Shown here: piece by piece, positions 1-64,000 of the stretch
Position numbering within the stretch: the stretch's first letter is position 1
Layout: the number at the start of each line of letters is the position of its first letter
Assembly (NCBI GenBank): GCA_008632985.1
Contig: QPGO01000013.1
Location: 558,001-622,000, forward strand
From: Psammoneis japonica
Lineage: Eukaryota
Length of the DNA stretch: 64,000 bases
Direction of reading: 5' to 3'
The notes under the pieces: generated by a model
The model's input: only the letters and a program-made list of their open reading frames with translations
Told to the model about the DNA's origin: nothing
Databases searched by the model: none
Made by a program: the position numbers and the translations under genes

Positions 1-2845
1 CATGCTGCTCCAAACCTGTGATCTTGGTTGGCTTGTGACGGGAACTTTCAGCACTTGGTTTGCTGTCTGGGACCCCATGCTCTTGGACCTTGCTCATCAT
101 CTCTGACCCTTCTTCCTTGCTCATCTTGGCCCGTGTTGACCTGCAAACTTGGAACAAGTGCTTGAGACAAGGGTCCAATCCCATGTGATGTCCCTCCATT
201 GCCAACTGGACACATGCACAGTGCACCCTCAATCCAATGAGTTTTTTCTCTTTGCAAAACACCATGTCTCCACTGACTGCAGGAGGAAACCAATCATTGA
301 TCAGTTGGTTTTCCAACACCCTGTCATGTTTTTCCAGATGAACTGCATCTGTCATTGTTTGCTCATCCCTGATGTTGAATGGCTCCCACACATGTGGTGG
401 CAGAGAGCACACACAAAATTCTTGGGAATCTGCAAGTCTTGTCTCCTGGCTTGCACCCAATCACTGTGGTGCAAGGCCGATGCTGCCAGGTGTGCAGCTG
501 CTCCACCACTTTCTGTTTGCTGAAACTGAAGATCAAAGCATCTCTGTCCAGGTGTTCATCAAAATGGATGCATCTGTTTCTCACAAATGTTTCCAAAAAA
601 TGCATCTCACCAGTGCTGTTGAAAGTCTTGCCATCTCACAGCAAAATGAAAATTGAATTTTTGATGGCCACAGCATGGCCCACTTTTGTCAAGCTCATGG
701 TGTGAATGGAGTGGCATGAAACTTGCCATGCACTCTCTGTGCAACCACTGCACTGGCTCAGCAGGCCTGTGCTTGTGCGCCAAAGCAAACCTTGGATCAC
801 CCATGTCACTGTGCATCTCTGTGCATGCATTGTCATCCACAATCACCTGTTGCAAAGTGTTTGTTGTGTGATGCCACATGCATTTCTTCACTTTGTCCAT
901 TTTCAAAAGATTTTTGTGTCAAGACAAGAAAAAAAACATGGTGAACAAGGCTTTCTGATTGTGCCAGGTTTTCCAGCTCAGGCAATTGCAGGCATTGGGA
1001 ACAGCACCCTGGCAACTCTGCCACAGTTTGTTTTTTGATGTTGTTCATCACTCTCCAGTGACAACTTGGCATTGTTGTTCTCTGTTGTGTTTCTTTTGCA
1101 GTCCAGCTGCATTTTGCAATTGTGGTTTTGTTGCCAGAGGGGCAGCAGTCATGATTTTTGCCAAACTCAAAATTTTGGTGGGGGGGCAGCAGCCACACCA
1201 TTTGCTTGTTTGAAAAATGTGGTGTCTCAATTTTCATGATTGAGGTGCGTTGTTTGTGTGTTCTGCATTTTGTGCAATGAATGACATTGAACATTCAAAA
1301 CTGTGCTTTTTTGTGTCAAATGTTGCTCAAATGGTGCATGAAATTTTGATCATCATTCTTCATTGTGTCATTTAATTTCCATTGAATTTGTGGTTGAATG
1401 AAATGCACTGTTGCCAAAATTGGTGACCCACAATTTGTCATCACCCTTGGTGACAAAAGGAGAAACAACATCATCAAATGGTTTGGAAACAAATTCTTTG
1501 TTGTCCAGGTGTGCTGGCACTCTGAAACATCATTGGCAGCTGGCCAAATGGCAGTGTCATGAGAAAGATGTGGCTCTCACACTTGTGCCACTGCACGATT
1601 GGATCTCAGTGGCCAGGGATTGTGTTGCAAGTCCACAAGACAAATGTGGCATTGGAGTGAGATCCCGTTGCAACCATTTCAACAGGAGGAGGGGCAAAGG
1701 TGGCTGGAAGAGGCAATGGCATCACCTGATTCTTTGGATTCTCTTGTTTGCAGCTGTTTGCCATGAGCATCTGTCAACTCATTGCCTGAAACACCACAAA
1801 TGCATTGAGAAAAGGAGAGTTTGCAGAGCAAACAAGCTCTGAGGTGATGTTAAAGACCAATTGGGAGGAAACATTTGCCGCAAATGGGGCAATCATTTCC
1901 TGCGGCAAAGGAAGGCATCATTGTTCATGCTGCAAACAGAGTGAGATGGAGATGTGTGGGAAGCAAAAATGAACAAAATGTGAGCCATGTGGCAAAAGCA
2001 ACACATGGCAGGTGACAAGATTGTTTTGGATGCAAGATCATTCCATGAATTAACACGCAAGATTGGTTGTCTTCACGCTGGTCTGCCGGGCTTGCACCAA
2101 GCAATTGGCAATTTAAGGCAAATCTGACTGGTCACAATGATGGAAACTTTGTCATGCTGGTGTGCATCTTAGATTTGTGCATGACCAGATGCTTGTTGCA
2201 TTTGTGATGGTTGCTTTGTTGTTTGATGCACATGGCACCCGCACAGCTGTGCTTTGTGCAACACATTGCTGCACTCTCAATGACAGACATTTTGTCATGC
2301 CAGAGTGCTCATCTTGGATTTGCATGACCAGATGCCATGAGCAACCACTTCCTGTTCTGAAACCAGAGCAGCTGAGAACATGCTTGTGTGATGGGCAGGT
2401 GCAGTTCTTTGAGGGGCAGCCAATTTCTTGTTTGCACTGAACAAAACACAGAGGAGCCACAAAAGATGCAGGAGGTCACACCCAGATGGCAAAATGGGCT
2501 TGAGTCAACATTGTGGCAAACAGAGCTGCTGGGCCATTGGCAGGGGCAAAAAAAGGAACAGGCAACATCTTTCAAACACCTGTGCTGGTCTCAAATTCTG
2601 CACTGACAACAGGAATCAAAGGCCTTTCACTCTGTTGCTGCCACAAAAAATGAGTGCTGGACCCACCCTCACTTGTTTGTGGTGGGGCAATGTGTTTCAA
2701 CTGACAGCCTTGCAGTCCGGCAGCTGGCCTCTGTGATGGTGGAGCAGTCACTTGCAGCAGAGAGAGAGGGATTGAATGGTTCATTCCAGAGAGCAGTTGA
2801 CGCCACCACCTGAATGAAAGAGATTGATGCAATCGCTTGTGATTT
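1..2845. other. TpA- and CpG-depleted, CA/TG-rich block (heavily mutated repeat-like DNA, family unidentified; runs off the window start)
   Basis: By-eye scan finds only 5 TpA in about 2.85 kb (1373, 1851, 2051, 2114 TTAA; 2170 TTAG) and few CpG. ORFs are Cys/His-rich and essentially lack Tyr. Confidence 0.85.
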
Positions 2846-3188
2846 GTAAACCAAGCGAGTTTGGATCCACAATGAGTTCCTTTGCAAGGAGTCAAATCAG
2901 GTGAATTCAATCGTCTTCCCGGCATCCTCCTCTCGCTAGAGAGAGTAGCTACTCTACTCTAGCAGTGTCTCCTTACAAAGTCCTGCAGTGCCAGGCTAGG
3001 AAAGGCGGTATATCAGTTTGAATCGATGTGGACTGCACAATAGTAGCAACATTAAAGCGACAGGTAAATGGTAATAATTAACATGAACTGCAAGTAAATG
3101 TATTGTGCATACATCACACCAATAATTAACTTCTCTCAAAGCCGGGCGCACAAGCTCTTTTCGTATCGACAGCGACCCGGCCTTCTGC

Positions 3189-6100
3189 CTAAGAAACCTC
3201 GCCGGTCGCAGACACACCCGTGACAACATCCTCAGCCTCGACACTGTCGGCTTCGTCCATTGCATCACTGAAAGCCTCAACTGGTTCATCTTCCATGCTT
3301 TGAGCACGTTCTAAACCTTCCTCAACTGCCGCTTCTTGATCCTTTTCTAGGCGGGCAGCCTCATCTAGACGATCCTCGACATCATAAAAGGCCACGCGCA
3401 ACGTGATGATCGTCATGGCACAAATAGCCATCCCCAACAGGAAACCAAATATTTCAGACATAGAGTCAAATCCATTAATGCAAGTGGCTGTCGAGCAACC
3501 AGCAACAACGAACGAACGGATGAGATGTGATGAAAAATAGTACGAGAATAGCCATCGAAGTACGTACTGCTATAGGCAATTCCAGTGTATATTGGGTTGA
3601 TTTTGTCGCAATTCATTGCCCGTGCAAGTTCGTACAAGCCGTCAACATACGCATTGTATTCTTCTTCAAGAAGATCTAAGGTTGAAAACACGTAATCTGT
3701 GTTGTTGCAGTCCACAAGCTCACGGTCAACATTTCTCAGGTCAACAATAAGGTCGTGAATCCCAATGATGACGGTTTCTATAGCTTTGAAAGCATCGAAC
3801 AGAATCTCAGGCTTGATATCTTTGTCACAACCCTGTGTCGACACAGTATCAAAAGGGGAAACTCGAATTGAGATGACAAGGTTCTGGCAGGACAAAGAAT
3901 GAGACTCTTGATTCGTACTTACGCGAACGTAATAGTTAATAAACTCGTCAAACGGCGGCTCCATATCTTCAATAATTCTAAGAACTTGGTTGTCCGGAGT
4001 GTCATAACAGAAATCAGCCGCGAGCGTTGCTCCAGTCGTTGCGATCGCTGACATTAAGTAAGCAATAAAGATGACAAAAATATACAACGGAATCGCAATT
4101 TTGCTGGCGCAGTCGTTGAATAATCTTGGAGTCTGCCTCTTCCAAGCTAAATACACACCAAACATAAAGATGATCGTCATTACATCGACCAGACAAACAA
4201 AGGCAATGGCAATAGGGAACAAAACTGAAGTGCTGATATCGTCCACCGTCTCTTCGACGCTCAAAATATCTTCATTCAGATTTGCCAGTGATCTGTTCAT
4301 TCTTATCGCTTCTGGCAAAAAGAAAACACTATCGTCGAGTGTGCGATTAATGTCAATCAAGTAACCGGTTCCATTTCCTTTGAACGCGTCGGTAATGTTG
4401 AGACCTGTCACATTGCTTAGGGCATCACCCGTATTGTTGCAATTGTCGACAAGAGCATTGATGAAAAGGATTCTTGCTTCTGTAGTCTGGTTCGATTGGA
4501 TAATAAAATCATGACAAGCCTTGTTGGCTGTTCCGATGAGGCTGCGGAGTTCCTAAACAAGGCAACAAAGTGTAAGAAAAGGGCGATGTGAGATTCATCG
4601 TCGATTCGTGGTGTGCATGCGCCAACACAAGTCACGCCTTACCGGCAAGCTTTGATCGGTTGACTCCAAAGTGTCGTAAATACCCTTGAATCCTAAACCA
4701 ATGAGCAGTCCAGAAAGGACGAGAAGAATAAAGCCAGCAACCAACACCGTAATGCGGATGCGTTTAAGCCTTGTTTCCACGCCAGGATTGCAGTTGCACT
4801 GCAATCGCTTGTACCACGGCTTGGTCTCTTCTTGTGCTTGAGGAAGATCATCAACGTCGTTTTCGGCAAGGTCTCCCGACTTGGATACATCAGCGGGAGA
4901 GTCGGTGTTCTTCGGGATATCTCCGGCAAACCAGATTAGTCTCTTTGATAACTTGAAGTAGAGTAGAAGACAAGCCCTATCGAGAACAACAAACCAAATC
5001 AACAACTGAGCACGAAGAAATCTCAGACACAACAATACGGCCAGACCAAAAAGAGAACCTACCAAACGAGCCAAAAGATCGCCATAACGACAAAGGAAGC
5101 CAAGAGACCAACGAGGTAGTCATTCTGTTTGTCTTCATCCCCAGAAGCAATGAGGTCAAACAAATCGTTGGTCTTTCCAAAACGGATGCCATTGTGGTTC
5201 CTTCGGATGGCTACCGAGTCAGAGAACGTCCTGGGCTTGAAATCAGGTGGAGGATCGGGGAATAGAATGCTTTCACCAGCAATGATGCTGTTGTGGACGC
5301 CCGTGTCTAAAATGACAACGTCATCGGGAAAGTCTGCAGCGGATATATTCATGGTCGGATCCAGAGCTAGAAAGATCCGTTTCCCCTGGTCGCACACATG
5401 ATCAACCTCAAACATGTTTACTGGAAGTTTCCATCTACCTTCTGTCAAGTTTCCAAACAAGTAGTAGTTGAGTCTTGAATGGAGAATATCAGTAAGAATG
5501 GAGGATCCCTGGGCTCCGCCGAGCGTCACGGATCCCTCCGCAATCTGCCAGAGGGCCTGCATCTGCCAAAAGCTGCCGTCTTCGGGAGGACCACCCCTAT
5601 GCACATCGTCCAAGTACTTGAAGATACGGTTCATGGCGTAGTTCGGGTTTGTCTGATTAGACCAGCAAGAGTACTTTCGGCTCACGCCGACCGACTCGAA
5701 TTCGTAGCCCGAACAGGAGTTTGTAGGGTCGTAGTTTGCAACCCAGCATTTTCCCCACACAGCCATAACAGCACCACCTCTAGGGAGTGCGGCTTTTTCC
5801 TTAGCCATATCGAGCGTCATGCCTTTGAGAGGCTTCGTGGTGTTGCACACTTCATCGTCAAAGTAGAAAATGCTTAGCTCCTCCAGCGCCTTCTTGGCTT
5901 CAGCGTCACACTGCTCCTTGAGTTCTTCAGTATCACCAGAGCACTTGCTAACTTCAGCAATCAATATCTCATCTGGGTTCTGGGCAGCCCAGTCAACCAT
6001 TTCCTTCATAGAGTCCTTGAAGAGGTAAGGAGCAATCACGCCTCCGTGATGCATCTGCAGACCGTCAGACTCTGTCAAGTACGGGCGCATATCGAATGCA

Positions 6101-6348
6101 CGAGCTCCGCATTCGATCTGTTCGGTGACGGTTCCAATCTGTGTCTTGGCCCAGGCAATTATCAGATTGTCGGGATCATCTTGGTTCGCATAGATATGGT
6201 CGTCACCGAGATATCCCATGGCTGTATCGTGTGTCATGATGAAGGGGACAGCATTGAGAGGAGTGTCGCCGGGGACAGGCTGTCCTGAGACTACCATACT
6301 GCCTCCTGAGAGCATCGACAATGCTAGGAGGCTTACTAGCGTTGTCAT
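3189..6348 (-). CDS. Multi-exon protein: signal peptide + PI-PLC X-domain-like phosphodiesterase fused to a multi-pass (tweety-like) membrane region
   Basis: FIMTHD...WAKTQ...EQIECGARAFDMRP...HHG motifs. GT-AG introns at 5062-4977 and 4642-4553 join ORF 5059..6348 in frame to 4595..5074 and 3413..4411. Later exons are approximate. Confidence 0.7.
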
Positions 6349-7097
6349 GGCTGAGATTTACACTTGTACTTGTTCACTTCTTTTCTTGTTGTCGCAATGT
6401 ACCATGTACCTGTAAATGCCGTCTGCTCAATTCTTTTTTTGATACACGATTGATCGCGCGGCAAGTTGACAACAGTACGGCAGGGCGACTACTGTTGCCT
6501 ACGTAGAACGTATTGTACTGTACAGTTTGTACTGGTGCATACGAGGCTGATGAGAACCTTGATGAGAACTCTACGTAACGCTGGATCTTTTTAGCGGTCG
6601 ATTTTATTTAGAGCTCGTAAATGTTTAAAAATAACCCGGATTCTTCGTACTAATGATGCGCGCGTACACCAGGTATGAAGGTTCGGGATCTCTCTAGAAT
6701 AACGACCGTAGACATGTCTGCAGCCAGTCAAACGCCAATTGTCGGCCTTTCCTGGAAAGTTGCGGCTTGTCTGCCACAAACAGTCCAATTTTGGCGAAAA
6801 CCAGCGGTTTGTCGAACATGACAACCGCGCCCAATGTGACAATTGGCGTTTGAAGGTTGACAAGTGCAGTTCACACAAAGGTCTGACAGCCCTGATGGGG
6901 GGCAGACACACACACAAGTGTTTGGAGGTGCTCAAATGCATCGCAAAATGACACGGGCGAAGTGCGAGCAAATTGTGGAATCACGAGCTGTTTGAAAAAA
7001 TGCCGCCAAACATCGATCCAGCCTCAAACATCAAATTTGACAGTCAAAATTTCAAATTCAACGGATGTTTGACCTTCATTGATGGACTTGACACAGC

Positions 7098-10000
7098 ATG
7101 GAGCGAAGTGATGTCACCTCGCGAACACCGTTGGCCATGTTGGACGACGCCAACAATGGCGACAATGGCGGTTCCAAATTGACGCCCATGAAACCCCCTG
7201 CCAAAAGAGCAAGAGTGGAGACTCGAGACCTCGCCTTTCTTGCGAGTGAGGAAGTGCAAGCAAAGAGATTGAGCGAGAAGACGTGCTGCAATTGCACCTT
7301 GGGGTCAACTTGCCAAACACATGCTTGTTCATGCTGCAAATGTGACCAACCATGTGCCAACTGTGTTTGCTTCCACAAATGCAAGAACAAGGAAGGACTC
7401 CCAACTTGTGGTGCAAGCGACAGGAACTCGGGTGAGAAGTCACGGAAACTTCCAACCTCCCCGGAAACCAGTCCACTTCAACCGAAAATTTGTCAACTCA
7501 TCAACGGCACCCCTGATGCTGCCAACAAACAAAACAAAAACAAGGCCAACACCAAAGCCAACAAAGAAAACATCGCACCCAATGATCAGAGGTGGACACT
7601 GACGAGGGCAAAACCGACGAGGAGGTCACTGCCACCACAAGGGACAGTGAGCGGTTGGAGGACAGATCGGGCTTGGAGGGAGCTGTCATTCCATCAATTG
7701 ATGACACCAATGCTGCACCCAATGACTTCAATTCAGAGAGGCAGAATGGATCATCTGCAAGTCATGTGGCAAAACATGTTGTCTGAGCAACGGCACTGAA
7801 CTGGATGGTGGAACATTGGACGACAAAACGTGGCAAGAGCACTGGCACCGGCTGATGCCCCACCCATCACAACGATGCAACGCACCAAATGGATCAGTTG
7901 GCAAATGATTCGTGACAATGTTGGCAGAGCTGCTTGATGGTGTCATGAGACGGAAGTGGAACTCGGAGAGGTTCATGGCATGTCAAACAGTCATTTCACA
8001 GTGAGACCGCAACGCAAAAGGAGCGAAAGAAATCAGAACCCTGCTCAGCATGCGCATGGACAATTGGGATGCGGGAAAGCACAAAATGCTGGTCCAGTCA
8101 ATGGAACGGCTGCTTGAAGCAAACCCAAAGACCAAACAGAGGGAGGAGACACCTGAGCAATGCGCCAAGACAATCAACAGAATGGCACTCCAAGGGAACC
8201 TGTGAGGAGTGGTTGGGTGCATTTCAGAACGTGAAAAAGGTGGAATTCTCTCACCAGATGATGTCGATGAAAAGACCAACAACACAGTGTTCAAGGTGCT
8301 TCAGAAGAAACATCCAGATTCAAGAATTCCGGACGAAGACCACTTTCACAAATTTGACGAAACACTGGAGCTTCAGGATGTCATTGTCACCGACGGTGCG
8401 ATCAAGACCGTCATTCGCAGACTGTCCGGAAGTGCAGGACTTGGCGGATCCGATGCCAACGCAGTGTCAGAATGGCTTCTCCGCCACACAAAAGCCAGTG
8501 GATTTCTTGGAGAAGCGTTGTGCATGTTCGCGAACTGACCAGCAAACAAATCGCCCCCATGGGCTGCCTGCCGTGCAATCATGGCGTGAAACGACTCATC
8601 ACGCTAGATGAAAACCTGGGCACATGCCCGGTCGGTGTGGGAGAGGTGTGGCAATGCGCCACCGCCAAAGCCATTCTCCTTGTTGCCAGAGCAGAGGCCA
8701 AAGAGGCTTGTGGGACAGACCAGCCATGCGCTGGACTGGAAGCAGGCATCGAAGGTGCCATCCATGTGATGAACATGCTCTGGGAACAAAACAAATTCGA
8801 AGACGACTGCGGATTTCTTTTCGTTGATGCCTCCAATGGGTTCAACAAAGAGAACAGGATTCCAATGTTGTGCAACACAAGGCACCTCTGGCCATCCGGT
8901 GCAAGGTTCACCTTCAACAGCCACAAGCATTGGAGCATCTTGGTCATCCGTGGTGACTTTGGAACTGCCTTCATCCTGCTCAGCAAAGAAGGTGTCACGC
9001 AGGGCAACCCACTTGACATGGCAGCATGTGGACTGGGCCTTCTTCCACCAGCCCGGGAGATGAATGACCGTTTCAAAGATGCGTTCACCCCTTGGTGTGC
9101 CAACGACTCTGCAGCAGCCGGGAACTTCGACATCCTCTGGGATTTTTTCTTGACGCTCCGAGCCAAAGGCCCCAAGCATGGATGCCACCCCACCGACAAC
9201 TCCAAAAACGTCCCAGTGGTGCCAGAACGCAACCTGGAAAATGCTGGAGCATGCTTTGGAGACCTCGGCTTCACTGTCAAATCTGGCAGCCGTTGCCTCG
9301 GAGGCTTTGTTGGAGAGACGGATGCACGTGACCGGTGGCCAACGGAAAAAGCCAAGTTGTGGACCTCGGTCGTCCAAGGACTTGCCAAAATCGTGATTAC
9401 CACCCCCAGACCACCTGTGCCAGTCTGCAGAAGTCCCTGCAACACCAGTGGCAACATGTCCAGCGTGCAGCAAAGGACTGTGGCAGTTCATTTGTGGAGG
9501 TGGAACACGCGACACAGTGCAACTTCCTGCCAGCGCTAATTGGCGAGACCTTGGCAGATGATGACCCAAGACCAGCCCCATCTGCCCCACCAATCAAATT
9601 CTCGGGACTGTCCATCCCTCATCCAATGGAGTCTGCAGCTCAAAACTTTCAAGCAAGTGCCTTCACGTGCTCCCACGTGATCGACTCACTGCGCGGCCGC
9701 TCTCAATTCTCCTCCGCAGTCCACAAGGACACCATGCGTGAAGTGAGACAGGCAGCAGCTGAACGGAAAGCCAAGGTGCACGAGGAGACCCTCAAATCAA
9801 TCCTCAGGACTCTGCCCGACCTCAAAGCCAGAGCTGTCAAGCGCAGCACCAAGACAGGCACATGTTTGTCAGCGCACCCTTCAACACTGAACGGCGCCAA
9901 ACTCTCATGCCAAGAGTTCCGGGATGTGCTCTTCTTTCGGCATGGCAGCACTCCATCGGATCTCCCAGAGCACTGTGATGGATGCAGATGCGAGTTCTCC

Positions 10001-10657
10001 ATGAACCACGCCCTTCAGTGCAAGAAGGGCAGCCTGGTCATCTCATGACATGATGAAGTCAAGGACAACCCAGGTGATCTAATCGGCAAGGCCTACAAAC
10101 CTTCCCACGTGCACAACGAACCTCTCATCAACCCCATTGGTTGCATCTTGGGAAGTCCAAGCACTGCCAACAGCTCCCCAGGCAACACTGACTCCAACAA
10201 GTCCAAAGATGGCGATCGTGGAGACCTTTTCGGCATGAGATTTTGGGATGGAAAGACAGACATGGTGACGGATGTTCGAATCCCTGACACGGATGCGAAG
10301 TCACACCTGTCCAAAACACCAGAAGAAGTCCTGGCACAACACGAACGTGAAAAAAAGTGCAAGCACCTCAAGCCCTGTCTTGAACAATGCCGTCATTTCA
10401 CCCCTTTTGCAGTGTCGTGCGACGGGCCACTTGGCAAAGAAGCCAAAGCGATGCTCCGCAAGATCGCGTCGAGACTGTCGGACAAATGGCAAAAGCCACA
10501 TTCGGAAGCATGCGGCTGCGTCAATGTGAGAATGAGCATCACCACAGTCCGAGCGACTCACCATTGCCTCAGGGGATCACACATTCCCACATCACAGACA
10601 AGCTCCAGGTGACCCCAGTGGGAAGATGGTGCAGGTCTGTCTCTCTGCAGACACTGA
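7098..10657 (+). mobile_element. Inactivated non-LTR retrotransposon, single ORF with RT + C-terminal restriction-like endonuclease (CRE-like)
   Basis: RT motifs: PVGVGEVW, AGIEGAIH, FVDASNGFN, EGVTQGNPL, WCAND (=WYADD), GSRCLGGFVG (=YLG). RLE region: CDGC...HALQCKKG, RGDL, DVRIPDTDAKS, FTPFAVSCDG, CLRGS. Broken by frameshifts and TGA stops. 3' UTR extends to about 10930. Confidence 0.9.
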
Positions 10658-10965
10658 AAAGGCCCACTCCGGACGGAATGCCCTCACCCAGACAAGATGC
10701 TGACCCACTGCCAAACAACACTGCAGATGCTCTAGCGACAAGATGATGACAACACCCTGACACACCAACTCCGGCACCAGAATGTTTTCAAAATTTAACA
10801 CGCACAGCAATCGAAACTTGGGCGTGACAACCACCCCCCACTCGCACGACTGCATTAACTGCACAATGCCCATTTTATCACTGCAGTTTGTTGGACATTT
10901 TAAATGACCACACATGACCATTTTTTAGATCTCCGGTTGTGTTTCATGTCAAGCAATGAATGCGG

Positions 10966-11510
10966 ACCAGAGAAAAGCGCAAGTGCCTCAAGCCCTGCCT
11001 TGAGCAACGTCACCAATTTGCTCCCTTTGTCACATCATTCGATGGACTGTTTGGCAAGGAAGCCAAGGCAGTGCTGTGCAGAATCTCTGCCAAACTGGCT
11101 GAGAAATGGCAAAAGCCATGTTCAGAGGTGTGCGGCCATGTCAATGCAAGAATGAGTGTCGCTGTGGTGTGGGCAACTCACCGTTGCCTCAGGGGATCAT
11201 GCATCCCTTTGTCCCCCAGATCAGCTCCAGATGTCCCCAATGGAAGGTTGGTGCTGGTCCATCCCTGTGCAAGCACTGGATGACCCCACATGGGCCAGAC
11301 CACTCATGCGGAAAGTGCACCAACCTGCTGCTCACAGAGACCATCAACATCATGCCAAGAAGACAACAAAAACCTGGCAACATGCTGGTTGCGGCACCAG
11401 AATCCATTCAAATCTCACGCGCACAGCTCACAAAAAACTGCGCCGACAACCGCCCCTTGCTTGCATGACTGCATTGACTGTGCAATGTCCACTTTTTCAT
11501 GTCAAACAAT
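10966..11510 (+). mobile_element. Second, 5'-truncated, diverged copy of the same retrotransposon family (RLE C-terminus + 3' UTR)
   Basis: REKRKCLKPCLEQRHQFAPFVTSFDGLFGKEAK...CLRGS aligns to 10346-10657 at an offset of about 620. 3' UTR segment 11453-11490 matches 10837-10872. Confidence 0.85.
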
Positions 11511-12327
11511 TCACACTCTGTCCATCCACACAACTGTTGAAGCATCTTCTGTGTGACCCAGAAAGAAGATCCCCAACCCGAACTTGCGAGCCTGCTGCAT
11601 GACCAAAACCCCCCTTCAGCAAAAAAAATGAACTTGCGCAGCTTGAAACTGGCTGCTGACCAAACAAATTAGCACCTCATGGACTGACCTGTTGACAGAG
11701 GCAAAAAGCCATTGTTCTCAATGCACTGTGTTGTTGGGAAGCCCTCATGTGTGGAGCACCTTTGCCCCATCAAAATTGCCGTCAAGGTCTTCGGGGGGGG
11801 GGGTTCCTCCCGCAGAAAGCATGCATTCAGGGGGGTTCACTGCACAGAATCAGTGCCAAGACTCTGTGGCACCAGTGAACCATGATGTGGCTCGGGAGGA
11901 TGTGTGCACAGAAATGCACACAGAGCTTGGCTGGGTCAGAAGGCAAAATGCCAACTTTGTTCTGCAGATGCAGCAGTGAGGGGCACTTTAAAAATCAAAT
12001 GAGCTGCCAAAATAAAGCACGCCTCTGTGCCAATGGATGTGACATTGCCGCAGATGTCTTGTTGTCTTTTGCATTTTTGCCGATGGTCTGCAGGGCAGTT
12101 TTTGTTGCACCATGAAGGCAAGGAACCACTTGATGGCTTGGGGCACCAACTGCACACAATGTGCATGATTTCACACAGCGAACCACTGCATGGTTCATGG
12201 TGGGAGTGGGGCCAGCCAGCAACTGTTTTGCATTGTGTGCAGACAGCATGCACCAGCAATGTGGGGTGCCACATGAGGATGTTGATGAGAACACGCCATG
12301 GATCTTTTGGTTCTCACTTTCACAATG

Positions 12328-12363
12328 CCCCCCCCCNNNNNNNNNCCCCCCCCCCCCCCCCCC
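12328..12363. repeat. Poly-C run containing a 9-N assembly gap (12337-12345)
   Basis: Directly visible. Confidence 0.95.
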
Positions 12364-14952
12364 TGTCCACACCCCTCCACTGTTGAAAGTGAAGATGAAC
12401 ATCAGAGCTCACAACATTGCTGGAAATTGACAAGGCATGCACTGCCAGTCAGGTGCAATTGCTCCCCCCAGCTCTTCCACCATGCAGCTCTTGCAGCAAC
12501 ATTGTTTGTTGGTGGTGGAGCTTCCCTGGGACCCCAGATGTGTGTTGTCACCCCAGGTGAAATGAGGCACACACATCCTTCTCCTGGGATCAGATTGTGT
12601 TGTCCTCTTTGCCCATCTTCCATTGACATGCATTTTGTGCAACAGCAAATCTGATGTGAATTTTGCCCCAATTTGTCATTGCATCTTTCACCAGATTTGT
12701 TCATTTTTGAAGATGGTCCACAATCTGTGTGCACTGGAGGAGGGTGTGCACAAGAACACAGCAATTTTGACATGGCCAGTGCAAAGCTCATGGACAACTG
12801 TGCATGATTGTTTCACATTTGAGAAAGCATTTTGCTGTGTCTTTCATTGCACCTGACTGCTTTTGAAAGAATGCCCATGATCTTCATCTCATGTGAAGAC
12901 ACCCCATGCAAAGAGAGTGGCAGAACTCTCTGGCTCTGATTTTTTTTTAAGAAAAAAAAACAAGAGAAATCTGTCTCATGCATGTGTTTGTTGTGCATCA
13001 CTGGCTGTCTCAAAGATTGGCTGATTTGCTGACGTGCATGCACAAGAGTCTTGAGTTGTTGATCACATGCACTGGTGGCAACACAGCAGTGCCATCAAAG
13101 TTTGACAGAAGTGGGTCAATTTGAGTCATTTGAAAGGCAGAGGCAACAACGCAGTGTCTTCAAAATTTCAGCTCCGGTTCAAGAAAAATGAGTCACACTT
13201 GCACCTGGCTGAGCTTCTCAATTGTCACCACACACAATCACAAAGCTGGGCAATGTTGCTCTTCTGTTCACACCAAAATTTGGCAAGTTGGTGCACTTCC
13301 CCATCAAAGCAAAAGCATCATCCACAGTGACTTTAAAGCAGTTTAAAAAGCCAGCTTGTCTTGAGAGGTGAGCATTGTGAAAAGCCCCACTGCACAGCCA
13401 AAGGGAGAGAAAAGGACACAAATGCCATGAGTGGAAAAGCTTGACAAAAGGCCTCACAAGCCAAAAAATCAATGTTGCTCCAAAAACACCATTGGGCTGA
13501 TTGCAGTCTTGTTTGCACTCTTGCTCCCACATCCCAGACATTCATTGGTTCCCAAATGCAGACAAGGTCATGGCAACTGCATGGCACTGTTTCTGGTGTG
13601 TGGTTTGCAATGCAGAGCATGAAAAAATGTCTTTGTTTTTTGGCTCAATTTTCTTGCATGGGTTTGGTGCCAAGTGTGCATCACATGCACAAGTGCACAG
13701 AAAACCTGATGATTTGTCATCCAAAAGTTTCTCACCTGGCATGAAAACATGCTCCCGCTTCAAGAGGCACACCTCTTTTGCTGTGTTGGCTCTCCCGTGA
13801 ATTGAAGAGTGCATCAAAGAAACAAGTGTGATTCCAGATCAGACGCATGACAACAAATTGAGTGGCAAGTGCAGGCACAGCTCTTGTGTGAAAACTGTTG
13901 CATGCCAGCAAAATGGGGTGGCTGTGGCAAAGTCAACTCAGGATCTTTGCTGTCTGCCAACAAGGTTGCTCAGCATTGTGACTCCACATGACCAGGATGT
14001 TGCACCCATTGCACCAACATGTCCTCTCTAAAGTGGTGGAAGATTGGGGTCATGTCCTGTGGTCTCCTTGCAACAACAGCTGGTTCCAGACTTTTCTGCC
14101 AGACCTTTGGAGCTTGCCAAACAACTTTTAGTTGCTGTGGCTGTTGAAAGAAAGACTTTCTTCTCTCTGGGATTAAAAAAGTGGTTTTTGATGACAAAGT
14201 GCTGCTCACCCACTGTTTGTCACCTGGCCTCTCAGGCACATTGAACAAAAAACAAACAAGAAGTGATGGCTGGACAAACAACAACAACAAGCACTGACCT
14301 CTGTGGCTTTTGATGGGAGTCCAAAAGAGCTGCCCTTCTTTTGGTGACACCTTTGCATTCTCTCCTTTGGTGCACCCTCAAAGAAACAACCAAAAATCAT
14401 CCCTGCTCCTCACCAAACCAACTGAGTTTCACTCCCAGATGTCTCGCAGCAAATCTTTCTCATCTTGGAGTGAGGTTTCTGGGTCTTTTGGAAGCAAGGG
14501 ATGCAACAATTTAAATTGAAAATGCTCTGTTCTGGAGAGAGTTGTGGATTTTTGTTTTCTTGCCAACAAAAGGGAGAGGACACACACACAAACACGCTGA
14601 CAAATTTTCTTGGCATCATCACAGAATTGTGCTTTTCTGCTGTTTGAGCTTGCTGCCATTGTGTTTTTGTGCTTGCGCAACTCAAAACACCACAGTGGCA
14701 CAGGTTGCTGTGCAAGTGTCTTGCGGTGCATGTTTTGTTCTTCTTGTTTTGGGCTGCAGCTGCAAGAAGTTCTGGTTGGCAGCATCAAAAAGCAAAGATT
14801 TTTTTGGTGCTAGAGAGCAGCTTTGTGAATGATTTGTTTTGCACTTTTGCATTTTCTCACATTCAAAAAGTGCTGCACAAGCAGTGTGAGAAGGGTTGAC
14901 AAAGAAGCAAAAATGGCACATTTGTGTCTAGCGGTGAGTTGAAAAAAGAGAG

Positions 14953-14978
14953 GAGAGAGAGAGAGAGAGAGAGAGAGA
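14953..14978. repeat. (GA)n microsatellite
   Basis: Directly visible, about 13 units. Confidence 0.9.
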
Positions 14979-15602
14979 CGTGTTTTTTCACAAACAACTG
15001 TGCAGTGCATGAGCAGCAAGCAGCAACAGACTCTTTTGACTGCTGGTGCTGGGAGAAACAATGCCCAATGTTTTGCCTTTCCAGCATCTGCCCAGGGAGG
15101 AAAAGACAGGAAGAGACACAGGGGGCAAGGAGGAGTCAGAAGGGTCAGCTGGCTGTTGCCATCAGCCATGATTGGAGAAGAAGCAACAAAAACCAGGCCA
15201 GAGAAGCAGCAAGGTAGTGTCAGCAAGCAATGGGTGCCCCCAGAAGGCAGGCATCATAAACATGGAGAAGTGGAGAAGGCACCTTGGTGTTGGTTGAAAG
15301 TGGACCATGTGTCAATTTGATTGTGCCCAGTGTGTTTTGAGGTGGTCTGTGCTTCTCTAGACCTGCCGGGTACAAGTAGATCAGGCCAAACTGCATGGCC
15401 AGATTCTGCGAGATGGGACCTGCTATCAGGTTCAGAATGACAGTCGGTCGAAAATTGACTCCGTTCGGTGACAGCATGACTTAGTGTTCTGACTAACAAT
15501 TAGATTGAAAAACTACTAAGATTACTCAGAACACACACAATACAACGGAGCTAGCTAAAGATGTCCTCGGATCGCCCCATGATAGCAAGGTCCACCACAT
15601 GC

Positions 15603-17792
15603 TCAGTGTCCGTTAGCAATTGCGGCGTTTTCAAACACGGGACGGGAGTTAAGGTCGGGAACCGATCCGGCCTTCTTGTAAAACTCAAAAAGGGCCTTAC
15701 CCTTGCTGACCACGTTGTCCTTGCTGAAACCAAAGTGCTTAAAGACTGCGCTACCGCTTCCAGAGAGACCAAAGCTCGTCATACCAATTTGAGCATGGCT
15801 AAACCTATGCCATCCGTGGACAGCTCCAGCCTCCACCGACAAGGTCGGAACGTTGCCTGGCAAGACAGACCGCTGGTAGGACTCGCTTTGCTCCAGAAAG
15901 ATCTCCTGACAGGGCATAGACACAACTTGTGTTGCAATCCCTGAGGCAGATAGCTCCTTTGCTGCTTCTACGCAAATACCCATTTCGCTTCCTGTCCCAA
16001 TCAGAACAAGCGCGGGATCGGACACTTCCACAGCCACGTATGCTCCATGGCTTGCCTTTTCAATCGAAGACGCTTCGATCGCGGGAACACCACTTCGTGA
16101 GCAGCAAATGACCGACGGAGTCGTGGTTTTGGTCAGTGCCATTTTATAGGACGCTGCCGTCTCATTCGAGTCAGCTGGACGGAAAACGTTGATGTTCGGC
16201 ATGGACCTTAAGCTCTCAAGTGTTTCAATCGGCTGATGAGTCGGCCCGTCCTCGCCAAGTCCAATGGAATCATGCGTCATGATGTAAATCACACCAAACC
16301 TCGAGAGCGCCGAGAGACGAATAGCTCCCGCGCAATACCCAACAAAGGTAAGAAAGGTAGCACAGAACGGACGGATACCACCGTACGCAAAGAGCCCATT
16401 GCAAACGGCTGCCATGCCGTGCTCACGGACACCAAACCGGAGGTAGCGACCATCCGGGCTGTCCTTCTGAAAGTCACCAGAGCACGCCAATGCCGTCAAG
16501 TTGGAAGGAGTCAAGTCAGCGCTACCACCAATCAGCTCTGGTAGGTCTGGCGCCAAGGCGTTGAGGCAAAAGTTACTAAACTTTCGAGTCGCCTGGTCCT
16601 TGTCTTTGCCAATCTCAAAGGTAGGTAGTTTTGAAAAGATGCCTTCAGGAAGTTCGTAGTTGAAGCGACGGGTAATCTCTGCCGCCTTGTCAGGATGCGC
16701 CGAAGCGTAATTCGAGTACAGAGCATCCCACTCCTTCTTCTTTGCTTCGCCCTTGGCGGTGCTCTCGGCGTACACATCCTTGACTTCTTGAGAAACGTCA
16801 AAGCTCTTGTCGGGATCAAGTCCGTAAGCTTCCTTGGTTCCACGCAAATCATCCACTCCAAGAGGTGCTCCGTGAGCACCTGCCGTGTTGGCCTTCCCTG
16901 GCGATCCATACCCAATCACAGTGGACACCTTGATGATGGAAGGCTTGTCTGTCACAGCCTTGGCAGCCTCCACAGCGGCACGGAGATCCTTGATGCCATC
17001 TGCGACATCGCCCACTGTCTGAACATGCCATCCGTAGGCTTCGTACCTCTTGGCAACATCTTCCGAGAAACTAAGATTGGTTTCGCCATCAATCGTGATC
17101 TTGTTGTCGTCGTACAACACAATGAGCTTTCCAAGGCCCAAGTGGCCGGCGAGAGAACTCGCCTCGGACGACACGCCCTCCTGCAAACATCCATCTCCAC
17201 AAATCACATAGGTGTAGTGATCAAAGACCTTGTACTCGGGAGTGTTATAGGTGGCTGAAAACTGCTTTTCAGCAATCGCCAAGCCGACAGCGTTCGAAAT
17301 ACCCTGTCCGAGAGGACCGGTGCAGACCTCAACGCCTGGAACATGAGCAATTGAAAGCTTAGCAACATCGTTTCTTGCAAAATTCACAAGCATAACAACA
17401 AATAGCCCCTTCAGAAACACGTACCATCCGTCGCAAACACTTCTGGATGTCCCGGAGTCTTACTTCCAAGCTTACGAAACTGCTTTGAGATCCTCAATCG
17501 TCACGTCATACCCACTCAAATGAAGCATGGTGTACTGAAGAGCACACGCATGGCCGTTGCTCAGGACGAACCGATCGCGATTCATCCACGTGGGGTCGGA
17601 CGCGCTGTAGTTCATGACTTGGTTCCATAGCAAGTGCGCCAAGGGAGCACATCCCATGGGAGCACCGGGATGTCCAGAGTTGGCAGCTTGAGGCTGATCG
17701 GCAGATACAGCACGGATCGTGTTGATGCACTTGAGCTCGAGATCCGAGCCGTCATACGTCTTGGGCTTTTTGGATGGCGGGGCAGATGTCAT
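15603..17792 (-). CDS. TKT: Transketolase, probably cytosolic
   Basis: [52 protein letters not shown]. Intron 17424-17336. One extra base near 17485 breaks the frame in this assembly. No targeting peptide. Confidence 0.95.
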
Positions 17793-32672: not shown

Positions 32673-32902
32673 TTCACACACATCATGTCTCTCAAATTTC
32701 ATGATCAAGGAAGATTACACTCAAGAGCAAGCACCAGAATGCTGGTAAACAATCTTCCGCAAAGGACTGCTAAGCGTAGGTTACGTGTTCACACACATCA
32801 TGTCTCTCAAATTTCATGATCAAGGAAGATTACACTCAAGAGCAAGCACCAGAATGCTGGTAAACAATCTTCCGCAAAGGACTGCTAAGCGTAGGTTACG
32901 TG
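32673..32902. repeat. Perfect tandem duplication, 2 x 115 bp
   Basis: ttcacacacatcatg...gtaggttacgtg at 32673-32787 and 32788-32902. Confidence 0.9.
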
Positions 32903-58189: not shown

Positions 58190-59410
58190 TCCCCAAATCA
58201 CAAAGAGGATGCCTTCAATGGGCTTCGTCAATCAAAATTTCTTCCTCCCAGGAGTCAAAATTTTCTTCGAAGCCCACGTCCTCGTCATGGTCATCATCTT
58301 CCAAATCGTCAAAGCCCTCCGGTTTTTTACCGTCGTTCAAAACCTGGTGAACGAGCGCCGTGTCTTGGGCTGAAATCTGTTTGAGAACAGGTGACAAAGC
58401 TGCACGGAGGTCATCTCACCCAAAACCATCTGACCCAGCAGAACATGGTGGCGTGTTTTGGGAGGAAAGTTCTTGGCGACAAAGTCTTGCAGTTTGGCCA
58501 AATTTTCATTGAAAAGGCGATTCGAGTGGTGAACTTCTTTGGCTGTCTGGGTGTTCAAATGAATGTGAAGATACGGGAGTTCCATGACTTTGCCACCAGC
58601 AACGTTGATGAAGCGCCCGCGGATTCATTGTCGCAATGCGTGATGAGCAAAACAACAGAGCTCACATGATGGCCTGTGGCACCGGAATTTCTGATCTTCC
58701 AAATGCAGTCTGGTCCCATGAAAGGCTTTAGCACTTCCATGCCTGGACAAGGGACAAGGCACAGTCAAGTCGAGGATCCATTGTCAATCATCGCGTTTGG
58801 GTGAGAGACACACCGGCAAAAGAACTCACTGAGCTTGGCGCACAAAGAAGCACTTTTTGTGGTTTCACATGGCAATGGCTTTGATGTGTGGGGGCAGCAA
58901 ACTGGCTCATAGATTAACTGCAGCATGGGGACTCGCTTCTTCCTCATTTGTCTTTTTCCTGGCACTCACATTGCTTTCTTTTTGTGGTGTTGAAAGCCTT
59001 TTGGACTTGAACACAAGCAATCGGGTTGCAGGAGCTGGAGATGGAATGTGAGTGCATTCAATTGGGTTTGCTTGCAGTGGCAGGGAAAGGCAGCTGGGGG
59101 CCATGGCGAGATGAGCGTTGCTGGCGTTCGCGGTTTTTTACAGGTGCCAGATGCCAGAAGCCAAGTCTCTCACTCTCTCTCCGGCTGCACAGGCGCACAG
59201 CTCAAACGTGCACCAGTCGAAGCACACATGTTCATGTGCACATGAAGAGCAGCATGAAGACACACCGCTTGTGTACTCTGTGCATTGACATAAATGTTCA
59301 ATGATGCGAACACCGGTTCACAGATTCTTCACAGAATGTGAATGGCGACATTTGCAATTTGGAATTTGCCGGATCGATCGATTTTCTGTGCGTGCGATGA
59401 TGACATCATC
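58190..59410. other. Small partially TpA-depleted island (degraded minus-strand gene or element)
   Basis: About 8 TpA in about 1.2 kb while CpG remains common. Only fragmented ORFs. Confidence 0.6.
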
Positions 59411-61616: not shown

Positions 61617-64000
61617 TGATGTGTCATTCACTCCCCCGTGTCAGAGGTTTTGTGACATTGTCATTTTGTCGACACAGTTGACGATGGCAGACAGGAGTCT
61701 TTGGCAAATCCTTTCCTGCATGTCTTGTCACAGATTTCATCGCAGAAATCTGCACGAAGATTGTGCTGCTTGTGTTGGCATGTGTTTGGCAACATGCACA
61801 GTTTTCTCACAACTGCCTTGCACTTCTGTCATTTGCCATTGCAGCCACATGCACCATTCCCAGAGAGCATGTTTTTGGAGGCCAGAGGCAGCCGTTTGTT
61901 CAGCACATTGAAGATCATGTTGGGCAAGACAGAAACCTGGATGTGTTGATTGGAGATGTGGCCAGCACACTCACATCACTGCCTTCACAATGGCAGTGTC
62001 TTTTGCTGAAGTCAAGTGCACCAAAGTTGTTTGATGCTGACAATGGGAGGGCACAAGCAGTGCTGCACATGATGCCATTCTTGGGCTGGACAAAAATGCA
62101 CTCTGCTCCTTGTTTGACCATGTGAAACTTGCAGAGTCCAACAAACAGAGTGGTGATGGTTTGCAGCATGGAGTCAAGTGTCCAGGAAGCACCCATGCCT
62201 GAAGACATGGTGAGAGTTTGAACTTCAATTTTGACATGCACCATGCAAGAGGGATTGTGTCACAGCAGCAGCAGAAAAAGGCATTCTGTCAAGGAAGTCA
62301 AGAACAGAAAAAGAGTGTGCAGGCCAGTTTGGTCGACAACTCCAGTGCAGGCTGTGGCCTGCAGTGAGTGGGTCCAGCCTCTCCTTGAGGAAGTGCAGCC
62401 TTGCAACACAGTGACTGCCAAAGAAGAGAAGGAGCAGGAGCAAGAGGAGAAAAGTGAAGACAACAAAGTCTCAGAAGAGAGCACAGTTGAAGCACTGTCA
62501 CAGCCACCAGCAACAACAACCAATGAATCCAGATGTCCAGAACTTGCCAAACTGGTCACCCCTGGTGTGATCTTTGACAACAAAGCAGCAAGTGCCTGGC
62601 AAGGTGCTGGAGCAGGTGCTCATCAACACAAAAAGAAGGATGCTGTGCATGGAGAACTCACATGTGTGGTCCAGAACAAGAAGTGAGCAAGGTTGCTTGT
62701 GTTGCCAAATGCCACCAACAATGACAAGCTCCAAAATGCTTTCTTCAAGAAGACTGTCATGGAGAGCATCAGCAGGAGTTGAGAGTGGCTGCAAGATTGT
62801 TGCTGAGTTCACCATTGGACTCATGTCTGATTGCAAACCATCAACAATGTTGGCCAGCACAAAGGTCCTAAAAACAGATCATGTCTGCAACCTGATGGTG
62901 CTCTAGACACCAGGGTGACAAGGAAGACTGTGTCTGTGTCTTGTTGCGCCCAAGCTGGCAAAAAAGGACCAGCTGGTGGCCCACTCTGGTGTGCAGGTGT
63001 GAGCACAATGGCTGCAAATGTCATCAAGCAGGCCATGCTGTGGAGAGAAAGACCTTGGGCTTGACTCTCAGAAAAGAAAAAGGGCAACACTTTTGTGAGC
63101 AAGCAGGAGACCACTTGGGGCACATGCTGGGGCTCACTGTGCTGGCTTTGTTGCATTGCAGCTGGAGGGAGAGAGCCAGGGGAAGTTTCACATTGCTGCA
63201 ATCATGAAATGCAAGGGGCAAGCATGTGATGCCATGAAAAAACAGTGGTCACATTTGAAAAAATTTGTTGCTGTGGTTCAGAGCTGAAATGTGCTTGACA
63301 AGAAGCCTGTGTTTTGATTCAGTGCTCATCCTTCATTGCAAAGGGGCAGCTTTTTGCAATTGACCAAATCAGCAAAGTGGGAAACCAGACTCAAGAAAAT
63401 TTGGTGTTGCAGCAATGTGTGGGCTCTTGACAAAATGACCCCTGCACTGGCAAAGCAGCAGGAGACAACAATGAGTGAAACATTCTTCATTTCTGTGCAC
63501 ACACATGGTCAGTTGTTTTGTTGCTCATTGGCTGGAGCATGCCAACAATTTGATTTGTTCATTTGTCAACTGTGGTGCACACTTTGCAATTTTGCTCTCT
63601 TGTGATGTTTGCTTCTGCCCTGGCAATGTTTGGCATTTGGTGCATGCTCTTGTTTCATGCTCTCATTTCATTGACTTTGCCCCCTCTTTTCTTAAGACAT
63701 TGTCCTGCCACCTCTTGCAGTCTGTTCTGCATCTCAGTGTTCTTGGCTGTGCTGCTTTTCATTGTGTGTGAGATGCAAGACAGCAATCCCTGACAGAAGA
63801 CAGCAGAGAAGTTGTCAGTTTGGCACTTTTTGTTTGGCAAGCATGGCACAATGCTGCTGTTTCTGCTTGCCTGTGTGCAGTGTTGCAGCACTTTGTTTCT
63901 TGTTCTTGGCTGTTTTTGTCAACTTGTCTGAGTTTCAAGAACAAAAAAAGGCAAAAAAGTGTCAACTTGTTTGTTTGCCACAAGCTTCCTGCTCCTTCGT
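61617..64000. other. TpA- and CpG-depleted block (heavily mutated repeat-like DNA; runs off the window end)
   Basis: Only 3 TpA seen in about 2.4 kb (62869 CTAA, 62904 CTAG, 63693 TTAA). CpG is nearly absent after about 61900. Confidence 0.85.

Follow-up and report, generated by a model that had tools for sequence, protein, structure and literature searches.

TpA-depleted zones and reciprocal CA/TG sites of two neighbouring retroelement copies in a 64-kb stretch of the Psammoneis japonica genome

The stretch of DNA considered here, called the window throughout, comprises 64,000 nucleotides of the Psammoneis japonica genome (NCBI GenBank assembly GCA_008632985.1, contig QPGO01000013.1, positions 558,001 to 622,000 of the forward strand). 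Its main subject is a pair of degraded, adjacent copies of a retroelement, copy A and copy B, lying in a zone from which the dinucleotide TA (TpA) has nearly disappeared. Over the whole window the observed/expected ratio is 0.47 for TA, 1.26 for CA and 1.31 for TG. The TA deficit is uneven and, according to counts per 500 bases and to the exact positions of TA, it is confined to sharply bounded zones. A preliminary description of the locus had noticed that the two copies, paired at an offset of 620 nucleotides, carry CA in one and TG in the other at several codons, and had proposed that the ancestral doublet was TA and that each copy mutated independently after insertion, on either strand. The zones and the copies are the following, with coordinates counted from the first letter of the window.

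1..2850, no strand: zone without TA and CG, continuing past the left end of the window (over 1-2500, TA 0-3 and CG 1-4 per 500 bases, CA and TG 52-71).
6710..15300, no strand: main middle zone, made up of copies A and B and of an older zone (25 TA between 6710 and 15257).
6710..10965, plus strand: copy A, a degraded, near full-length retroelement with a probable reverse transcriptase (RT), nearly TA-free, read in three frames with in-frame stops.
10346..10612, plus strand: the block studied in copy A, coding part of the conserved C-terminal domain (EKK.KYL ... CLRGSR), located by homologue alignment.
10966..11510, plus strand: copy B, a member of the same family truncated at its 5' end, of which the C-terminal domain and the 3' untranslated region (UTR) are left, with 0 TA, located by tblastn and by the repeat at offset 620.
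11511..15300, no strand: older zone in which TA and CG are both nearly gone, with no recognisable coding (500-base counts, positions, Pfam, self-comparison, depth).
61620..64000, no strand: zone without TA and CG, continuing past the right end of the window (TA 0-2 and CG 0-1 per 500 bases; last dense TA at 61615).

In the genic background, 500 bases hold about 20 TA and about 27 CG. The three main zones, 13.8 kb in all, hold 33 TA, as against 565 expected from the flanks. At the left edge of the middle zone, 12 TA lie within the 105 bases 6605-6709, the last of them at 6709, and the next is met only at 8605; the edge of the leftmost zone falls between 2847 and 2937, with 8 TA and 7 CG in the boundary bin 2501-3000. 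Copy A (4256 bases) retains 11 TA and 180 CG, that is, 2.6 TA per kb against about 41 in the flanks and 42 CG per kb against 55, and copy B (545 bases) has no TA and 13 CG. In the older zones, TA and CG have both been lost. Specifically, the observed/expected ratio of CG is 0.61 in copy A, 0.35 in copy B and 0.03-0.10 in the old zones. Added together, TA, CG, CA and TG reach a constant density in the flanks (237 per kb), copy A (243) and the old zones (241), as interconversion of these pyrimidine-purine steps by transitions predicts. ApT also varies along the window, its observed/expected ratio dropping to 0.56 in 14001-16000 and to 0.62 in 62001-64000, compared with about 0.9 elsewhere. Between the left and the middle zone, about 200-300 bases from each, stands an expressed gene that is itself unpurged. 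It is represented by a spliced contig (3059-6423, minus strand) of the RNA-like run X2, with five exons and four introns of 80-90 nt with GT..AG ends, and its last exon holds a PI-PLC-X-like open frame of 432 aa (5059-6357). The same run gives next to no cover over the element, and no RNA run is listed among those containing the stretch; this is no evidence of silence.

The pairing of two retrotransposon copies at offset 620, as first described, is real and emerges both from the comparison of the window with itself and from a MAFFT alignment. Self-comparison gives a direct repeat between 10353-10587 and 10973-11207 (family D1, 235 nt, 71% ungapped identity) and a second repeat block, at offset 619, for the ends of the 3' UTR, and the mean column identity of the MAFFT alignment is 78%. 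An intact homologue of 1191 aa, P0003, matches copy A by tblastn with its residues 106-1191, over 7275-10651 and in three frames, and copy B with residues 1092-1172 only, at 10972-11223. The 85 bases between the end of the A/B similarity and copy B (10881-10965) contain two TA (10901 TTAA, 10926 TTAG) and one CCGG, and could be either the tail of the 3' UTR of copy A or target DNA. All the triplets that had been quoted are found where they were placed: 10364 CAC/10984 TGC, 10427 CCA/11047 CTG, 10499 CAT/11119 TGT, 10508 GCA/11128 GTG and 10517 TGC/11137 CAT, as well as 10580 CAC/11200 TGC in the CLRGS-R motif and, in the 3' UTR, the pairs 10862 CA/11481 TG and 10856 TA/11475 TG.

Over the whole alignment, the copies differ by 133 transitions and 58 transversions, and show 27 reciprocal CA/TG column pairs (15 CA/TG and 12 TG/CA), 22 pairs of CG with CA or TG, and 2 TA/TG pairs. 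Since the middle of the UTR aligns poorly, and part of the 27 reciprocal pairs may be due to chance, the ungapped coding block (10353-10612 versus 10973-11232; 260 bases, 87 differences) was tested by itself. Its reciprocal pairs number 13. In 5000 simulations that randomised the placement of the substitutions and left their number and type as they were, there were 3.0 +/- 1.6 such pairs, with a maximum of 10; none attained 13. The excess of reciprocal CA/TG pairs in the coding block is real and beyond chance. That the block looks entirely reciprocal is due partly to the fact that discordant outcomes alone are visible, and partly to the opposite local strand bias of the two copies: from 9941 to 10590, changes in copy A are mostly T>C and those in copy B mostly A>G. 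Copy B reads Cys at both of its conserved Tyr columns.

To establish what preceded the CA and the TG, 196 homologous proteins, collected by two word-indexed searches and one exhaustive HMMER search, were aligned to a profile of the C-terminal domain. The K-Y-L column contains Tyr in 168 homologues, His in 18, Cys in 3 and Arg in 1; the DG-L column Leu in 115, Met in 38, Val in 15, Ile in 12 and Pro in 1; the P-Y-S column Tyr in 157 and Arg in 1; the x-V-C column Val in 108, Thr in 38, Ile in 18 and Ala in 7; and the G-Y-V column Tyr in 104, Phe in 50 and Arg in none. At these five columns copy A reads His, Pro, His, Ala and Cys. The TA ancestors proposed for the five sites are thereby borne out, the homologues having Tyr, Leu, Tyr, Val and Tyr/Phe. 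Arg, Pro and Ala, the products of CG codons and the residues named in advance as those that would speak for a CG ancestor, were looked for in all 196 and are nearly absent. Among the 13 reciprocal pairs of the coding block, the residues of the homologues favour a TA ancestor at nine (10364, 10399, 10413, 10428, 10499, 10509, 10517, 10537 and 10545), a CG ancestor at three (10527, 10580 and 10590) and neither at 10543. In line with what had been suspected of it, the CLRGS-R pair (CAC/TGC) belongs to the CG-derived minority, as its column is Arg in 151 of 167 homologues. The DNA of up to 13 relatives was used as well: where at least half of them have TA, at 24 dinucleotide columns, the window shows TG 10 times, CA 5 times, TA never and another doublet 9 times. 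Judged from the homologous proteins, the ancestral state of most reciprocal sites of the coding block is TA.

These comparisons bear directly on the plainest explanation of CA/TG pairs, namely that all of them descend from CG by ordinary decay of methylated CpG. Such decay does act here: beside the CLRGS-R site and the other CG-derived pairs (3 of 13 in all), it has changed 8 of about 26 CGN codons of copy A, including a CGA>TGA at 10046, and CG is nearly gone from the old zones. As the only cause it is nevertheless ruled out, and we would give it practically no chance. Arg, Pro, Arg, Ala and Arg, the residues it requires at the five sites, occur in only 1, 1, 1, 7 and 0 of about 190-196 homologues; Tyr codons hold no CG, yet none of 12 survives in copy A; and TA has fallen from about 41 to 2.6 per kb in copy A while CG still stands at 42 per kb.

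The direction of the changes is best followed in copy A, which was compared with 12 intact homologues over 478 columns at least 75% conserved. None of the 12 conserved Tyr has been kept: six are now Cys (TGY), five His (CAY) and one Phe. Other residues have largely survived, with Phe kept at 17 of 20 columns, His at 10 of 11, Asn at 9 of 10, Cys at 9 of 10, Lys at 18 of 23 and Asp at 20 of 26. Outside TA, A>G at the second codon position is found at 3 of 112 columns and T>C at the first codon position at none of about 60. Leu has become Pro, through CCA, at 8 of 60 columns, and a CpG-type change (Arg to Cys, His or stop) has affected 8 of about 26 CGN Arg codons. Two codons of copy A serve as landmarks.

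9183..9185, plus strand: Tyr codon of the RT catalytic box, now TGC, which turns the consensus WYADD into WCAND (Tyr in 10 of 10 homologues).
10046..10048, plus strand: in-frame TGA where homologues have Arg in the RHNE motif (RHNE or RHDE), an example of CpG decay (CGA>TGA); the open reading frames (ORFs) 9332-10048 and 10049-10612 on its two sides share a frame.

With 5% of TA and 69% of CGN codons retained in the same element, TA has been lost about eight times as fast as CpG, assuming one clock. A loss about eightfold that of methyl-CpG is hard to reconcile with spontaneous decay, and points to an enzymatic, targeted process. Two further candidates do not fit. Mutagenesis at WA motifs by a Pol-eta-like polymerase after CpG deamination can be discarded on the argument that AA is spared and that TA loss is saturated against a CpG loss of about 30%; GC-biased gene conversion is rejected because the accompanying change of CG to CA or TG goes the opposite way.

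The TA that survive in the zones are found in particular contexts, 27 of 33 being flanked by a pyrimidine on the 5' side and a purine on the 3' side (YTAR). Relative to the flanks, retention is 59% for TTAA, 18% for CTAG, 17% for CTAA/TTAG and 0-4% for all other classes. The sensitive motif, on either strand, is TAY >> TAG > TAA, or, equivalently, T>C is favoured 3' of a purine. A strict RTA rule for T>C does not hold, as eight Leu(CTA)>Pro(CCA) changes have a 5' C: the context is a preference and no rule. Of the 22 TA left in the old zones, 19 have a protected YTAR context; had they arisen anew from CA or TG, only about 20% would be expected to be YTAR, given the context frequencies. This suggests that new TA are apparently still removed there.

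As to the identity of the element, a profile of nine relatives searched against solved structures has R2 retrotransposon proteins as its best and sole match, in the RT region of three chains (E 9e-7 to 1e-4). In Pfam, RVT_1 reaches 23.4 bits in P0003, under the cut-off of 29.6, and has no match in P0001 and P0011; the window's own pieces do not match the RT family, nor does the C-terminal domain (KYL...FTPFV...CLRGSR) match any Pfam family. The motifs CDGC...H...C, RHNE and D.I.DVR.TD can be seen by eye in the relatives. The element may resemble the R2/CRE-type non-LTR (long terminal repeat) retrotransposons, a group with a restriction-like endonuclease that is marked by a C-terminal Cys/His motif and a PD-(D/E)XK-like nuclease, in the R2 structure match, in the Cys/His, RHNE and acidic motifs that follow the RT, and in having a 5'-truncated copy in tandem with a full one; it differs from them in a C-terminal domain without a Pfam family, and its clade could be CRE, R2, Utopia or another. 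Sixty-four metagenome loci encoding relatives have TA observed/expected ratios of 0.30-0.84 and no 500-base window with fewer than 3 TA. The scan that retrieved them used Tyr-containing peptide patterns, so that hypermutated copies were excluded by design and the 64 loci are unmutated controls only. Coding DNA of 12 close relatives has 23 TA per kb compared with 1.7 here. Judged by such relatives, the family is not natively TA-free.

Sequencing reads provide a measure of copy number. The DNA run X1, the only listed holder of this sequence and a single sample, contains 85% of the sampled words of 6500-11600 and is probably the source of the assembly. On 2000-17000 it places 1609 contigs at 80% identity or more. 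Their summed depth is 650-2900 over the element and about 66 over the flanks; the element family is therefore high-copy. The X1 copies differ from one another at 913 transition and 248 transversion places, and the 40 best-supported differences include reciprocal doublets at 6903/4 (CA here, TG elsewhere) and at 7341/2, 9217/8 and 9438/9 (TG here, CA elsewhere). The 5' end of the element is marked by positions 6710 and 6723, where contigs from other copies cease to match the window. Over 2067-6619, 10612-11007, 11358-12336 and 12346-14938, X1 contigs match the window with 0-1 differences. This agreement speaks against an artefact of sequencing or assembly, for instance miscalls at modified bases, and so do the presence of the same Tyr-to-His/Cys signature in independently predicted database proteins and the frameshifts, stops and many differences outside pyrimidine-purine steps that the copies also carry. 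What could be said for such an artefact is that a gap of nine N (12337-12345) interrupts a poly-C run, and that the only run containing the stretch is probably the assembly's own sample; we regard it as highly improbable. The poly-C run itself (12330-12365) lies in the TA- and CG-free zone, and X1 contigs end on the two sides of its gap, at 12336 and 12346.

The signature extends to a second part of the window and to other proteins of the family. A further degraded gene, unrelated to the retroelement, forms a partial zone with the same loss of TA.

58190..59410, minus strand: degraded, frame-shifted relative of P0198 (a hypothetical protein of 263 aa), TA-depleted with CpG kept (dinucleotide counts, tblastn).

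Its 1221 bases contain 8 TA, 49 CG, 118 CA and 116 TG, and the seven aligned Tyr of P0198 read His twice, Cys twice, Phe twice and Tyr once in the window. Pfam has nothing for the frames at 58.2-59.1 kb, nor for P0198. Among 197 database homologues of the retroelement, moreover, 11 carry His or Cys in at least two of three Tyr columns, and five have no Tyr at all, the median of the rest being 2.3% Tyr. Hypothetical proteins of the family that are low in Tyr, with His or Cys at Tyr columns, include P0015, P0046, P0073, P0082, P0112, P0135, P0140 and P0193. The three Tyr columns are all His in P0082 and P0193 and all Cys in P0073, which hints that other copies may have undergone strand-wise outcomes. 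Several of the Tyr-poor homologues, for example P0015, keep their Arg codons. The degraded relative of P0198 and the Tyr-poor database proteins indicate that the purge is not specific to this locus and, probably, not confined to one family. The preliminary description had treated the pattern as a feature of the two copies; it is real in both, but this frame was too narrow, as TpA has been removed from about 14 kb of the window, including DNA unrelated to the retroelement.

The older zones are of less certain origin. Pfam recognises no credible family, of transposons or otherwise, in 87 open frames taken from the TA-free zones: the HA domain at 60217-61320 belongs to a normal gene, and three other matches are weak and below their cut-offs. 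The ORF 14866-15135, in the older part of the middle zone, has one sub-threshold match, DmmA-like_C (24.2 bits, cut-off 27.4). Comparison of the window with itself detects no similarity of the old zones with each other or with the element, and Rfam has 0 matches over the whole window. In run X1, depth is about 57-72 from 12521 on, which is approximately single-copy from about 12.5 kb to 15.3 kb.

Some other features of the window were also recorded. HA-domain (Pfam PF03457) genes lie, all on the plus strand, at 60217-61320 (E 1e-35), 56674-57546 and 59787-60335, and the paralogous pieces 56102-56274 and 60022-60194 are 70% identical with normal TA. Tandem repeats lie at 31855-32432 and 32673-32903. 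They comprise a repetitive open frame whose units, with much Pro, Gly and Ser, are 86-88% identical, and an exact tandem duplication of 116 bases (100% identity) in which TA and CG are normal. Either the purge spares some local duplications or this duplication is very recent.

Taken together, these data lead us to propose that repeat-derived DNA underwent a hypermutation of A:T to G:C that is specific for TA and acts on both strands, accompanied by a slower decay of CpG. We place the probability of this reading at roughly 55%. It starts from what has been shown: the loss is large and sharply bounded, it prefers certain contexts, the family affected is a repeated one, and the sites descend from TA. 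In a first step, either the T of a TpA would be changed to C, giving CA, or the A to G, giving TG, each by a single A:T>G:C transition on one or the other strand. Because TA is self-complementary, two outcomes are possible per site, and copies hit independently should show CA in one and TG in the other at about half of the sites they share. The process would be far faster than CpG decay, with about 95% of TA gone and about 70% of CpG left in copy A, and would halt sharply at the edges of repeat-derived DNA. Afterwards, deamination of methyl-CpG would slowly strip CG. A purge of TA followed by decay of CG leaves old zones with CA and TG alone among the pyrimidine-purine steps. In coding DNA, the purge would erase Tyr codons, including that of the RT catalytic box, and turn Leu(CTA) into Pro. 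Since it makes no new stop codons, long open frames without Tyr persist.

Several observations weigh against this proposal or narrow it. Neither Pfam nor self-comparison identifies the old zones as repeats or transposons, and their CA/TG skew is not large, contrary to what strand-wise tracts would give. The expected numbers of TA were derived from flanks or distant relatives, used in place of the actual ancestors. Read confirmation comes from one sample, which is probably the assembly source, and TA-rich intact master copies may exist beside the X1 copies tabulated, for which the best-supported differences alone are listed. No enzyme, base modification or mutation event was observed in what is an analysis of sequence only. 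As to tracts, the outcomes at Tyr codons along copy A run C H C C C C C H H H H (C), and a runs test on 15 columns with a TA majority counts 5 runs where 7.7 would be expected (z ~ -1.6), and for the A/B alignment, which is partly unreliable, the count is 9 where 14.3 would be expected (z ~ -2.1). The T>C changes of Leu to Pro, moreover, fall within the apparent TG tract. Strand-coordinated tracts are thus suggestive only. To the same side belong two facts that would equally fit a change made before integration: the TA-free zone begins on its left exactly where the 5' end of the element lies, and CA gain in copy A is about twice TG gain relative to its relatives, as would fit deamination of minus-strand complementary DNA (cDNA).

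The latter explanation deserves attention, as it concerns the part of the preliminary description that does not stand as worded. Mutation on either strand is supported, with Tyr changed to His five times and to Cys six times in copy A; that the mutations followed insertion is not established, since they might instead date from the RNA or cDNA stage, ahead of integration. According to this alternative, the RNA or the first-strand cDNA of the element is deaminated at TA during retrotransposition, so that copies arrive already mutated. It would explain the coincidence of the zone's start with the element's end and the excess of sense-strand CA just mentioned, and it would suit the facts that the clearest cases are retroelement copies and that both copies are independently saturated. 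However, both strands of one copy have been changed, and the sense-strand T>C in copy A means that RNA editing alone cannot account for it. In addition, 3.8 kb of non-family DNA, two further zones and an unrelated degraded gene are also purged; 19 of 22 TA of the old zones are in protected contexts, suggesting that new TA continue to be removed; and the restriction to TA, with AA untouched (Lys 18 of 23 and Asn 9 of 10 kept) and a 3' pyrimidine preferred, is unlike the neighbour preferences of ADAR. We therefore consider editing before integration unlikely. On the whole, it seems rather probable that the process acts repeatedly on chromosomal DNA in place. This is favoured by the extension of the purge over the 3.8 kb of adjoining non-family DNA (11511-15300, mostly at single-copy depth), over the other zones and over the unrelated degraded gene, by the change of both strands in one copy and by the protected contexts of the TA left in the old zones.

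Regarding the chemistry, A>G would be reached most simply through deamination of adenine to inosine. A tentative candidate for the hypermutation proposed here is accordingly an enzymatic deamination of adenine, with inosine read as G, by a deaminase that prefers a 5' T. The main alternative in chemical terms is a modification of thymine that mispairs with G and has the same outcome in sequence. In its fuller form this would be a region-limited bias that needs no dedicated deaminase: in silenced chromatin, the thymine of TpA would be converted to 5-hydroxymethyl- or 5-formyl-uracil, which pairs with G and gives T>C on either strand. Thymine hypermodification with a preference for TpA is found in dinoflagellates, and base J in kinetoplastids. 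The change of TA to CA or TG on both strands, the sharp limits and the persistence in old zones would result in the same way; the rate required, though, would be extreme, about eight times the loss of CpG in the same element, and what stands behind it is base-called sequence. We judge this bias improbable, somewhat more so than editing before integration.

Extending the TA-specific hypermutation to its possible function, we may speculate, with the odds somewhat against it, that it belongs to an undescribed defence system, in effect repeat-induced point mutation (RIP) in reverse. Such a system would recognise repeated or silenced DNA and convert nearly every TpA to TpG or CpA on either strand. 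Its agent would likely be a DNA-acting adenine deaminase of the tRNA-deaminase fold, and it would erase Tyr codons and TATA-like and AATAAA-like signals and keep doing so over evolutionary time. The Tyr-free frames in metagenomes would suggest that it operates in more than one lineage of marine eukaryotes. If confirmed, this would represent a second, chemically distinct eukaryotic way to kill transposons (A:T>G:C, confined to repeats, faster than methyl-CpG decay and with its own motif), as well as a natural mutator directed at adenine in DNA, or in cDNA, of relevance to base-editing enzymology. It would also account for the hypothetical proteins that lack Tyr and for the long, stop-poor frames met in algal assemblies and metagenomes; ancient repeats of such genomes could then be found with a simple dinucleotide index.

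Fungi are known to hypermutate repeats (RIP, C>T), and mammals to edit retroelements (APOBEC, ADAR). Hypermutation of repeats from TA to CA/TG was not found described in the texts that full-text literature searches returned, and it is apparently undescribed so far. Among known systems, methyl-CpG deamination in silenced transposons yields the same TG and CA products and also operates in these zones, where CG is under-represented and has passed to TG and CA. It differs in that it cannot touch TA, whose loss in copy A is nearly complete while about 70% of CpG is kept, and it explains only the CG-derived minority of the pairs.

Editing of retroelements by ADAR and APOBEC3 in mammals is similar in producing clusters of a single type of transition in retroelement copies, and A-to-I editing gives A>G; in addition, adenosine deaminases favour a 5' U or T neighbour. 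The differences are that here both strands are affected, TA only is changed, a 3' pyrimidine is preferred, about 95% of sites are hit and DNA outside the retroelement family is involved. In particular, the changes are not limited to A>G on the sense strand, as the five Tyr>His and eight Leu>Pro of copy A accompany six Tyr>Cys, and adenines are not edited promiscuously, A>G being found at 3 of 112 columns outside TA as against 6 of 12 at Tyr. A likeness in specificity is offered by tRNA adenosine deaminases (TadA, ADAT2/3) and by the A-to-I editing of mRNA in the sexual stage of fungi. The tRNA enzymes naturally act on an A with a U on its 5' side (U33-A34 of the anticodon loop), which matches the strict need for a 5' T seen here, and the TAY motif resembles the UAC of tRNA-Arg; these systems act on RNA loops and leave no heritable change in DNA.

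Similar in overall behaviour is RIP of ascomycete fungi, which likewise is a transition hypermutation confined to repeats, with sharp edges, a dinucleotide preference and action on both strands, and which saturates transposon copies until they are dead. Confinement to repeats with a sharp limit is found here for the element family, which is high-copy and whose edge lies at 6709/6710. The direction is opposite: RIP converts CpA and TpG to TpA (C:G>T:A), raises TpA and AT content and makes stop codons, while here TpA becomes CpA or TpG and no new stops arise. RIP is recognised by TpA/ApT above about 0.89 and (CpA+TpG)/(ApC+GpT) below about 1.03. In the window, TpA/ApT is 0.05 in copy A, 0.00 in copy B and 0.045 in the old zones, compared with 0.65 in the flanks, and (CpA+TpG)/(ApC+GpT) is 1.61-2.08 in the copies and old zones, compared with 1.22 in the flanks; there is thus no C:G>T:A change with TpA excess, and both indices are inverted. 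RIP also depends on methyltransferases of the RID/DIM-2 type and on a premeiotic stage. For context only, work on diatom DNA methyltransferases reports DNMT4 genes related to RID, of unknown function, from many diatoms (PMC9998398).

In conclusion, the pattern is most aptly termed an inverse-RIP-like purge by which repeat-derived DNA has lost its TpA, which is RIP-like in its repeat-directed saturation, and yet is no RIP.

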